DNA of 64,000 nt, taken from NCBI GenBank assembly GCA_964561085.1, contig CAZLNP010000004.1, forward strand, positions 15,580-79,579, in the 5' to 3' direction. Source of the stretch: an uncultured Candidatus Saccharibacteria bacterium (lineage in GTDB: Bacteria > Patescibacteriota > Doudnabacteria > UBA920). The position numbers were made by a program, and so were the translations under genes. Position 1 is the first letter of the stretch, and every line of letters begins with the position of its first letter. The notes beneath the pieces were generated by a model that was given only the letters and a program-made list of their open reading frames with translations, ran no database searches and was not told where the DNA came from. Below, in pieces: positions 39,095 to 42,548 of this stretch.

Positions 39095-39144
39095 TTCCTA
39101 AGCATAACAAAAAACCGCCTTTACGGCGATTTTTTAAAGTTAAT

Positions 39145-39561
39145 TTAGAAAGCTTGGAGCATATAAGCAAGGATCATCATGCATCCCAATGAGCCAAAGG
39201 CCATAATCAAGATTTTTTGCATAAACCAATTTGGATCAGTCCCACCGAAGAGCACTGCAGAAACTTGGGTTGGAACGATAAACCCTAGCCAGAAGAATCC
39301 TGCTAGCCCATACACGTTCCAATCGCTTGGTAGGCCGTTCATTAACAGAGCGAAGACCACGGAAGTTATAATCGTAAAAACGAATTGAGCAACCAAAAGA
39401 GGTGCCATTTTCTTGGTCATCACTTTTTGCTCTTCTGGAGTTGCTTTATCGAAGCCATGGATTTTGCCCCACATTTTCCCAAATATAGGCATGTACCATA
39501 TTGCGCCAAAAATAAATTGCGCAACAGCGGCAACTAGTACCGCGACGAAGTTTATATTCAT
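39145..39561 (-). CDS. DUF1761-like membrane protein
   Basis: N-terminus MNINFVAVLVAAVAQFIFGAIWYMPIFGKMW is characteristic of the DUF1761 family. Four predicted TM segments. Confidence 0.55.
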   Translation of the reverse strand: MNINFVAVLVAAVAQFIFGAIWYMPIFGKMWGKIHGFDKATPEEQKVMTKKMAPLLVAQFVFTIITSVVFALLMNGLPSDWNVYGLAGFFWLGFIVPTQVSAVLFGGTDPNWFMQKILIMAFGSLGCMMILAYMLQAF

Positions 39562-39593
39562 ATAGTAATTATATCATTTATTCCAAAATAGAA

Positions 39594-42164
39594 TCAGGGC
39601 TTCTGATCATAAAGAGCCAAAAGTGCTTTTAACAATTCTGGATGGTAGTGCTCGGTTATCATGTTGGCGGCCTTGTAACTTTGAAACCACTCCGGATTCG
39701 TTGTCCTAAACTGCTCAGCATCACGAATAATAGTTTCCCGAGCATGCTTGTACTTAAGAGCTAAAGCATAAGGCGTTATCCAACCCTCAGGAGGGCTTGT
39801 AACACTTTTTCGCTCTGCATCCCAGTCCAAAATTTCTTTTACCAAATCTGGATGGTAATGCTCAGCAACCTTGCTTCGGGTTTTAAACTTTCCAAACCAA
39901 CCAGGATGCATAACTCTATAATTTTCAGCAAATCTTGCAGACCTCTCGTAATCAACACCATGCTCAGAATATAACTGGCTCGTAGTTTTCCATCCATCAG
40001 GTGGAGATGGAAATTCAATTTTTGAATATTCTTTTTCAATAAGAAGCACTAATTCAGGATGATAAAAATCCACTTGACCAGCCCTAGTATAGTACTGCTT
40101 AATCCAATCAGGGTGCTCTGTTCTATAGCGCTCAACAAATTTTTTGATAGTGACATCCGATGTTTTCACTTCTTTTCTTAGGGCACTTGCAGTTTTCCAA
40201 CCTTCTGGCGCCTTTCTGCTATCAAATTCAACTTTCAAAATAGCCATTAACTCAGGGGAGTAATGTTCAAGTATATGATTTTGAGTTTTATACTCTTTAA
40301 ACCAGTCTGGGTTTTGATCTCTATATTTATCAGCTTCAACTTCAATTATTCTCTGGGCAGAGCCTAAAATAGCCTGGGACCCCTTATGAGTAATCCACCC
40401 CTCTGGCGCCCAATTAGTTTCAGCTCTCGGTTTCAACTTATCTACTACTTGTTTAACTAAGTCTGGATGATAATGATCATACACTACACCTTTATCATTC
40501 TTAAACGTGCCTGCCAAATCTGGGTTACCTGCTGCGAGTGAACTAAGTAAAGAATATACAGCCATATAAGGCAAATTGTAATTCTTGCTAATTTGATTAG
40601 CATTAAGCCAGTTATCAGGAGCTAAACTTGCTTCTACTCTTTGCTCCTGAAAGTCTTTCGATATACTCATGATCTCCTTCGTATCAACAATAACTTTCAA
40701 CCCTTCAATATTTAAATCAGATAACTTATTAGCTATTTCATCCTTGTTTTTTTCTGCCGGATCAACACTTTCTGAGTTTCCCAGAAACCGTCGCTCTGAG
40801 CTGTCTACTTCTGCAGCATTAGCAACTTCAGAAAACAAAATCATTGGCCGAGCAGGGCTTTTATCTATAAAGTCTATGATGTACGCCCACTTTTCAGCAT
40901 TATCTGGATTCAATCTGAGTACTCGCCCCCCTCTTTGCTCAGCATCTACTTGAGACAGAGTTGGGTGTAAATTAAATGCAGCTGTAGCCCTTGGTTCATC
41001 GAAACCTTCGATAAGAACTCTAGCATTGCACAAAACTTTAATTTCGCCGCTATGGAATCGATCTAAGATTTCGTCTCTTTGTTCAGGTTTCGTGCTGCCC
41101 GAAATAACTGCACTTTTCACCCCAGATTCTTCAAACAACCGATTTATATCCCTTGCATGGTTAACCCCAGAGCAATACGCAACAACCCTTTCACCCTTAA
41201 AAGCTTTATTGTACAATTCGACTGCTGATAAATTACGAGCCTCATTATTAACAGCTTTTTCTAAATCGACACTATCATAGTTGTGATTAGTATTTAATTT
41301 AACACTAGAGAGATCAGTACTTGTATAAGCCAGGATAGATTTAAATCTATTAATTAAACCTTCTTGAACTCCTTCAATAATATTCATGTTATGGACCTCT
41401 GTATTCAGAAGCTCTTTTACATGCTTATTGTCTGAATATCGAGGAGTTGCTGTGAACCCTAGCTTAATGGCATCAAAACTTTGAATTGCTTCGATGGTCT
41501 TTTCTCCCAAAGCTTTATGGGCTTCATCTAGAATCAATAAGTCATAGTCGTTAGGATTAATGACGCCACTTGAAACAGCATTAATTAAAGATGGATATGT
41601 TATTACAGTCACATCTTGATCAAAATTCTTTTCTTCTTGGTAATATTTTCCAAAATCTATGTCGGTAAATTGTTCCAATTTTTCCCCAGTCTGATTGACT
41701 AAGATCTTAGAAGGGACCACAATCAATGATTTTAATCCCAGCGCTTCTGTTATCTGGGAAAACAGGACAGTTTTACCAACTCCAGTTGGTAATTTTACAT
41801 AACCCTCTTTATGTCCTTCCTCGAGAAACGTTCGCACATCTTCAAAAACAGTAAATTGTCTATCCCTAAGGACTCGCTCTTCAGGGTTCAATTGATGGTG
41901 AGAAATGTATTCATCTAGGTTATTCAAAGCTTGAATAGAAGTACGCAACTTAACTAACTCATGTTGGGAAATGTCAGATTCATTCCTACGGCTACGTAAC
42001 AGCTTTAAATAAGTATTATACCTTTCTGGGAATTTCGATTTGATATCTTCTATAGAAAGATTGCTGTCATTCACTCCGCGATCAATATCTAATCCCAAAA
42101 TCTCTGAAGTCGCATCTACTTGATTTTGGATATCATGCTCTGATTTATAGTTTCTATTTTCCAT
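39594..42164 (-). CDS. Superfamily-2 (DEAD/DEAH, ResIII-like) helicase with five C-terminal tandem ~67-aa repeats
   Basis: Walker A LPTGVGKT, DEAH-box ILDEAH, a helicase C-domain with motif VI-like QRGGRVLR, then (aa ~516-851) five repeats with consensus PEGW.T...........Y....P.WF..YK.......EHYHP[ED]L. No nuclease domain is recognizable. Confidence 0.75.
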   Translation of the reverse strand: MENRNYKSEHDIQNQVDATSEILGLDIDRGVNDSNLSIEDIKSKFPERYNTYLKLLRSRRNESDISQHELVKLRTSIQALNNLDEYISHHQLNPEERVLRDRQFTVFEDVRTFLEEGHKEGYVKLPTGVGKTVLFSQITEALGLKSLIVVPSKILVNQTGEKLEQFTDIDFGKYYQEEKNFDQDVTVITYPSLINAVSSGVINPNDYDLLILDEAHKALGEKTIEAIQSFDAIKLGFTATPRYSDNKHVKELLNTEVHNMNIIEGVQEGLINRFKSILAYTSTDLSSVKLNTNHNYDSVDLEKAVNNEARNLSAVELYNKAFKGERVVAYCSGVNHARDINRLFEESGVKSAVISGSTKPEQRDEILDRFHSGEIKVLCNARVLIEGFDEPRATAAFNLHPTLSQVDAEQRGGRVLRLNPDNAEKWAYIIDFIDKSPARPMILFSEVANAAEVDSSERRFLGNSESVDPAEKNKDEIANKLSDLNIEGLKVIVDTKEIMSISKDFQEQRVEASLAPDNWLNANQISKNYNLPYMAVYSLLSSLAAGNPDLAGTFKNDKGVVYDHYHPDLVKQVVDKLKPRAETNWAPEGWITHKGSQAILGSAQRIIEVEADKYRDQNPDWFKEYKTQNHILEHYSPELMAILKVEFDSRKAPEGWKTASALRKEVKTSDVTIKKFVERYRTEHPDWIKQYYTRAGQVDFYHPELVLLIEKEYSKIEFPSPPDGWKTTSQLYSEHGVDYERSARFAENYRVMHPGWFGKFKTRSKVAEHYHPDLVKEILDWDAERKSVTSPPEGWITPYALALKYKHARETIIRDAEQFRTTNPEWFQSYKAANMITEHYHPELLKALLALYDQKP
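39612..40619 (-). repeat. Five tandem ~200-nt coding repeats (PEGW...NPDWF...EHYHPEL module) in the helicase C-terminus
   Basis: Seen in the translation. Repeats are divergent at the nucleotide level, so they are ancient rather than recent. Confidence 0.65.
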
Positions 42165-42258
42165 CTACATATTTATGAAATACATATGTTAATTATACAC
42201 CAGTTCTAATATAACTAGCCCTTAAACAAAAACACCCACCATTCGGTGAGTGATTTTG

Positions 42259-42332
42259 TGGCACGGGCTGTAGGAATCGAACCTACGCAGCTGGTTTTGG
42301 AGACCAGCGTACTGCCACTATACGAAGCCCGC
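42259..42332 (-). tRNA. tRNA-Trp (anticodon CCA)
   Basis: Reverse complement reads GCGGGCT...CTCCAAA...GGTTCGATTCC...GCCA. The anticodon loop is CTCCAAA and CCA is encoded. A TATAAT box lies just upstream on the minus strand. Confidence 0.85.
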
Positions 42333-42389: not shown

Positions 42390-42548
42390 CTACTTCTTAG
42401 TTTCTTTGTGAGCTGTCTGAACTTTACAGTGCTTACAAAACTTTTTAATTTCTAGTCTTGCCTGAGTGTTCTTCTTGTTCTTCGTTGTAGCGTAGTTCAA
42501 GTTGTGACACACAGTACATTCTAGATCGATGCGATTATCTTGTGACAT
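42390..42548 (-). CDS. rpmG: 50S ribosomal protein L33 (Zn-ribbon type, 52 aa)
   Basis: Not in the ORF track because it is under 60 aa. Hand-translated: [52 protein letters not shown], with the L33 CxxC...CxxC and TTKNKKNT motifs. Confidence 0.85.

Follow-up and report, generated by a model that had tools for sequence, protein, structure and literature searches.

The feature described here lies in a 64,000-nucleotide stretch of DNA, referred to as the window, and is a single ORF on the reverse strand (39594..42164) with an ATG start and a stop codon at 39594-39596. The ORF listing and Pfam show that it encodes an 856-aa helicase that includes a C-terminal repeat array. On the upstream side are tRNA-Trp(cca) (42259..42332, reverse strand; ARAGORN), an rpmG-like ORF of 52 aa on the same strand as the helicase gene (42390-42548), and tRNA-Thr(tgt), tRNA-Tyr and tRNA-Thr(ggt), again on that strand. 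A terminator-like hairpin with a T-run directly follows tRNA-Trp (42233..42252, reverse strand) and is kept in both close relatives discussed below, and sequence and alignment place an extended -10-like element, TGTATAAT, about 28 nt 5' of the helicase ATG (42192..42199, reverse strand). Downstream, Pfam identifies a DUF1761 membrane protein gene (39145..39561, reverse strand), which is possibly co-transcribed with the helicase gene, and a terminator scan found a terminator-like site after it (39108-39136). An earlier note on this DNA had described the helicase core with its five repeats, the adjacent tRNA-Trp, rpmG and three further tRNAs, and the DUF1761, EVE, HAD and O-methyltransferase neighbours, and ARAGORN, the ORFs, Pfam, the intact helicase motifs and sequence shuffles bore out all of these.

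The helicase gene is accessory and strain-variable. In the close relatives L095 and L096, whose Tsf is 92% and 89% identical, collinearity with the window breaks off at about 42180 and resumes at 39582, and in both of them unrelated genes replace the helicase gene between tRNA-Trp and DUF1761. These two genes form the upstream and downstream boundaries of a variable slot; tRNA-Trp is kept in both relatives, and DUF1761 is 76-77% identical in them. The homology with L095 stops at about 42180-42183, and the extended -10-like element is present there before a different gene. This comparison upholds the suggestion that the tRNA side of the locus is a hotspot for accessory genes. In L095 and L096 the orthologous slot lacks the helicase, and neighbourhoods differ in all other loci, which rules out a universally conserved, syntenic CPR housekeeping gene. 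A conserved operon or partner gene was likewise rejected since eleven other helicase loci all differ; the lack of a conserved partner that would supply a pathway context counts against the explanation favored below. Of 23 helicase loci, 5 have a tRNA immediately upstream, versus 5 of ~280 other ORFs. The gene is not part of a compositional island, as GC varies little from 28 to 50 kb (0.34-0.43) and the helicase gene does not stand out.

The protein begins with a domain (aa 1-98; 41871..42164, reverse strand) that is all-helical in the AF2 model (helices at 9-23, 38-60 and 67-92) and has conserved residues R48, L80, N81, D84, Y86 and H90. A Pfam search with this domain gave no match, and alignment coverage from aa 1 indicates that it is common to sister helicases with other arrays; it is specific to this helicase family. 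The motor follows (aa 99-440; 40845..41870, reverse strand) and was delimited with Pfam, a PDB sequence search and Foldseek. Pfam recognizes ResIII at aa 99-242 (E 5e-25, 88.6 bits, cutoff 22.5) and Helicase_C at aa 320-418 (E 4e-15, 56.4 bits, cutoff 23.5). The helicase motifs are intact (PTGVGKT at 126-132, DEAH at 213-216, TAT at 238-240 and QRGGR at 410-414), and motifs I, II, III and VI (GKT, DEAH, TAT, QRxGR) are invariant across 44 homologues. Judged by these domains and motifs, the 856-aa protein is an SF2 helicase of the ResIII/DEAH type. A linker (aa 441-514; 40623..40844, reverse strand), delimited from the pLDDT profile, secondary structure and family consensus, consists of a low-confidence loop (aa 458-471) and a conserved strand-helix element, 'IEGLKV..D..EVMRI'; G488, L489 and E497 are near-invariant in the family. 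The full-length AF2 model has a mean pLDDT of 87.5 and a pTM of 0.60, and given the latter value the mutual placement of the repeats is not reliably predicted.

The motor is closest to XPB and RadD, yet it scores below the thresholds of both families. In a PDB sequence search XPB-II (6p4f) ranked top at E 7e-22, with Rad25 and RadD also among the matches, and Foldseek returned XPB and RadD at E 1e-15 to 1e-17. Like XPB/Rad25 (archaeal XPB-Bax1; XPB/Ssl2 of TFIIH), the helicase has a two-lobe SF2 DEAH/ResIII motor, and XPB structures are its top Foldseek matches (7egb, 5tnu and 6p4f, E about 1e-16). The NCBIfam equivalog model for XPB (NF045503), however, gives the helicase 62.8 bits versus a cutoff of 610. 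XPB is defined by the RED motif, a damage-recognition domain and, in archaea, the partner Bax1, and its N-terminus is an alpha/beta damage-recognition domain. In the helicase, 'GFTATPRYSDNK' ('TATPRYSD'; family consensus TATPxYS, or TATPxYSxxK) stands after motif III where XPB has the RED motif, the N-terminus is instead the all-helical 98-aa domain of the AF2 model, and no Bax1-like or nuclease neighbour was found in the window or at ~12 related loci. XPB itself lacks a winged-HTH array at its C-terminus. Among NCBIfam models the helicase matches that of RadD (E. coli YejH) best (aa 99-434); RadD also has strong Foldseek matches to the motor (8h5y and 6jde) and is, like the helicase, an accessory SF2 ATPase, of a class that acts in DNA repair. 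The RadD model (NF053632) gives 83.5 bits over the motor region only, versus a cutoff of 720, and thus the helicase is not a RadD equivalog; the similarity ends with the two RecA lobes, and the tail of the helicase is entirely different.

That tail is an array of five diverged repeats of ~66-71 aa that start at about aa 516, 587, 653, 722 and 792. On the reverse strand, repeat 1, the most diverged (PDNW ... HYHPDL), occupies 40410..40622 (aa 515-585), repeat 2 occupies 40212..40409 (aa 586-651), repeat 3 occupies 40005..40211 (aa 652-720), repeat 4 occupies 39795..40004 (aa 721-790) and repeat 5, which was modelled alone as a winged HTH, occupies 39597..39794 (aa 791-856). P[ED][GN]W lies close to the beginning of each and [HF]Y[HS]P[ED]L towards the end, and the signature of the repeat is PEGW..T, YR..HPEWF, EHYSPEL. 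Identity among the five is 18-40%, and Smith-Waterman scores of repeat pairs lie 4-25 SD above those of 1000 shuffles; no shuffle reached the score of 9 of the 10 pairs, and R1/R2 was reached by 3 of 1000. TRF found no DNA-level tandem repeat in the array, which is thus old and diverged. A recent duplication at the DNA level was rejected on the same TRF result and on a repeat-by-repeat score matrix that shows no near-identical copies; for the nearest homologues with five repeats, positional orthology is only weak in this matrix.

The earlier note could not assign the repeat to a known domain, and sequence searches give little to go by: Pfam has no match in aa 480-856, a search of the PDB with the repeat profile gave nothing below E 0.05, and the repeats of homologues make weak matches to HTH_29, HTH_28, HTH_23 and HTH_17 that add up when summed, with no single stretch that passes. 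Structure prediction now provides an assignment. Repeat 5 modelled alone (pLDDT 91.5) has a short strand, a helix-turn-helix, a beta-hairpin wing and a C-terminal helix and can be superposed on solved members of the MerR/excisionase class; its fold matches are pSK1 Par, RacA, MerR regulators, Xis and BldC, and those in BFVD are excisionase or MerR-like HTH proteins. As modelled, the repeat is a winged HTH of the MerR/excisionase type, although it does not belong by sequence to MerR_1, HTH_17 or a similar Pfam HTH family. The earlier note had named as the contrary case a known accessory domain, such as an HTH array, in a universally conserved and syntenic CPR ortholog; the tail indeed appears to be an HTH array, whereas the gene is neither universally conserved nor syntenic.

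BldC, Xis, TorI, RacA and pSK1 Par are single-domain proteins that multimerise non-covalently, whereas the modules of the helicase are fused in one chain, five here and 1-15 in the family, on an enzyme. None of these proteins has significant sequence similarity to the repeat, which has a signature of its own. To our knowledge, it appears to be unusual for MerR/Xis-type winged helices to be joined covalently into long arrays.

The repeat family comprises 936 clusters at 50% identity and is labelled Patescibacteria/CPR wherever the source gives a name. On the XPB/RadD-like helicase the winged-HTH array has 1-10 copies. In a second architecture the same repeat is N-terminal on SNF2-ATPase/methyltransferase fusions, and in a third, up to 15 copies lie behind a ~240-aa domain that has no Pfam or PDB sequence match. 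SNF2 ATPases are dsDNA translocases. These architectures show the repeat as an exchangeable, predicted DNA-targeting tail on at least three enzyme types. A literature search returned no paper on this helicase or repeat family, and a metagenome scan with the single helicase protein gave one distant match. CPR (Patescibacteria) genomes are rich in unannotated proteins, and the family defined here, with arrays that reach 15 units, escapes current Pfam models in the window protein.

Sister helicases bear arrays of other types, INT_rpt-like or HNH_repeat, in place of the winged-HTH array. Pfam names these INT_rpt (PF14882, 'Integrase repeat unit') and HNH_repeat (PF18780, 'Homing endonuclease associated repeat'); they are sequence families different from the winged-HTH repeat, and Pfam detects neither in the window protein. 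Both follow the conserved linker just where the winged-HTH array does, with the 'IEGLKV..D..EVMRI' element directly before the INT_rpt-like arrays, and both resemble that array in the size of the unit (about 55-72 aa) and the range of copy numbers. In hhalign, the winged-HTH repeat aligns with INT_rpt-like repeats along no more than the first 32 columns (probability 47%, E 2e-4). Core identity is 0.49 both among winged-HTH members and between these and their sisters with other arrays, and since other arrays sit on an equally similar core, the type of array was evidently exchanged repeatedly. The alignments show such swapping between winged-HTH, INT_rpt-like and HNH_repeat types on one helicase family; the number of swaps was estimated by NJ/Fitch on a star-like tree that may inflate the estimate.

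What might such a tail do for the motor? The explanation we favor, to which we give slightly better than even chances, is that the protein is an accessory XPB/RadD-type SF2 motor with five covalent winged-HTH modules, a DNA translocase that is tethered or targeted to duplex DNA. BldC binds direct repeats on DNA as head-to-tail multimers (PMC5859096). The five modules would line up head-to-tail along duplex DNA in the manner of multimers of BldC, Xis, RacA and pSK1 Par, and the array would give multivalent, high-avidity binding and possibly recognize a repeated sequence. The flexible linker (aa 458-471) would connect the array with the ATPase, and the anchored ATPase would translocate on or unwind nearby DNA, which could result in local opening, remodelling or stripping of proteins, whether in genome maintenance or on foreign DNA. 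A translocase that works against a fixed anchor is a plausible mechanism common to XPB and the helicase. We infer the ligand (DNA rather than RNA or protein), the head-to-tail binding and the anchored-motor mechanism. The charge of the array counts against DNA binding: the array is near neutral, with a pI of about 7 and a mean net charge of +0.85 per repeat. In favor of DNA binding, lysine and arginine are enriched on the second helix, on 'YR' and where the wing begins. The conserved residues of the repeat are mainly hydrophobic and most conserved positions form the core, and thus a DNA-contact signature is not demonstrated.

The near-neutral array would also suit two other roles. One possibility, which we regard as improbable, is that the protein is an RNA helicase or RNP remodeller whose array binds structured RNA such as tRNA or rRNA precursors. 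The gene is often just downstream of tRNA or ribosomal-protein genes, as in the five tRNA-adjoining loci and in L088, where it follows rpsL-rpsG and tRNA-Leu. The DEAH/ResIII core, however, is nearest to the DNA enzymes XPB and RadD and not to DEAD-box proteins, in fold the repeat is most like dsDNA binders, it also occurs fused to SNF2 ATPases, and at this locus a terminator-like hairpin separates tRNA-Trp from the helicase gene. Alternatively, the array may be a protein scaffold for homo-oligomerisation or partner recruitment rather than a nucleic-acid binder, a role that hydrophobic conserved residues would fit and for which Lhr offers a precedent, as the five winged-helix modules of its C-terminal domain nucleate a tetramer (PMC8053096). 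The core of Lhr belongs to a different clade, though, and its WH modules do not repeat one another in sequence; fixed in number, they are linked to a beta-barrel and make up the tetramer and an AlkZ-like unit. The copy number of the array varies from 1 to 15, and a defined interface between oligomer subunits would be difficult to square with interchangeability with unrelated small repeat types; we consider the scaffold very improbable.

It is also possible, if unlikely, that the protein serves in defence against phages or other mobile elements, with the array sensing foreign DNA and the helicase acting as effector or sensor, perhaps with unlinked partners. A strain-variable gene in a mosaic hotspot next to tRNA genes, the excess of tRNAs directly upstream, the fast turnover of array type and copy number, and sister arrays built of repeats whose Pfam names refer to integrases and homing endonucleases would all agree with such a role, as would the MGE-like neighbours at some loci (a serine recombinase and Replic_Relax in L093, Terminase_2 in L002). 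Yet the protein has no nuclease or other effector domain, no partner is kept across ~12 loci, and many copies lie amid housekeeping genes, such as the dcw cluster in L004 and rpsL-rpsG in L088. The earlier note had linked defence or the sensing of modified nucleic acids to the EVE gene, and this link is not supported: between DUF1761 and EVE lies a terminator-like hairpin, EVE is kept in a relative that lacks the helicase, and it is near none of ~11 other helicase loci. Assignment to a known system in PADLOC-DB 2.0, which calls for a full-length component match and the system's other genes nearby, was dropped. The matches of the helicase to PbeA, mREase_IV and REase_I, weak points in favor of defence in the case of PbeA and the helicase parts of type IV REases, are partial and limited to generic SF2 segments, and the nine neighbours yielded a methyltransferase-domain match to mad2 and nothing else. 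A phage origin was rejected as well. The array had no match in 50,697 phage genomes (tblastn), relatives in IMG/VR are core-only at 34% identity or less and none has the repeat, and a degenerate DNA pattern of the repeat had 5 chance matches and no real repeat there; the absence of a close relative or repeat from IMG/VR and GenBank phages counts against defence too.

If such long winged-helix arrays do bind DNA head-to-tail, they would represent BldC/Xis filaments in a natural single-chain form, and perhaps a DNA-binding scaffold that can be programmed. A bolder proposal, which we think has little chance of being right, is that each unit reads a few bp through variable recognition-helix residues, as in zinc fingers or TALEs, such that 5-15 units specify a long target. 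Such an array would deliver the helicase, the SNF2 ATPase-methyltransferase or the 240-aa domain to chosen loci, and frequent exchange of arrays would re-target these enzymes. Among closely related CPR genomes, the locus itself is a mosaic cargo slot that adjoins a tRNA cluster and has a putative conserved promoter.

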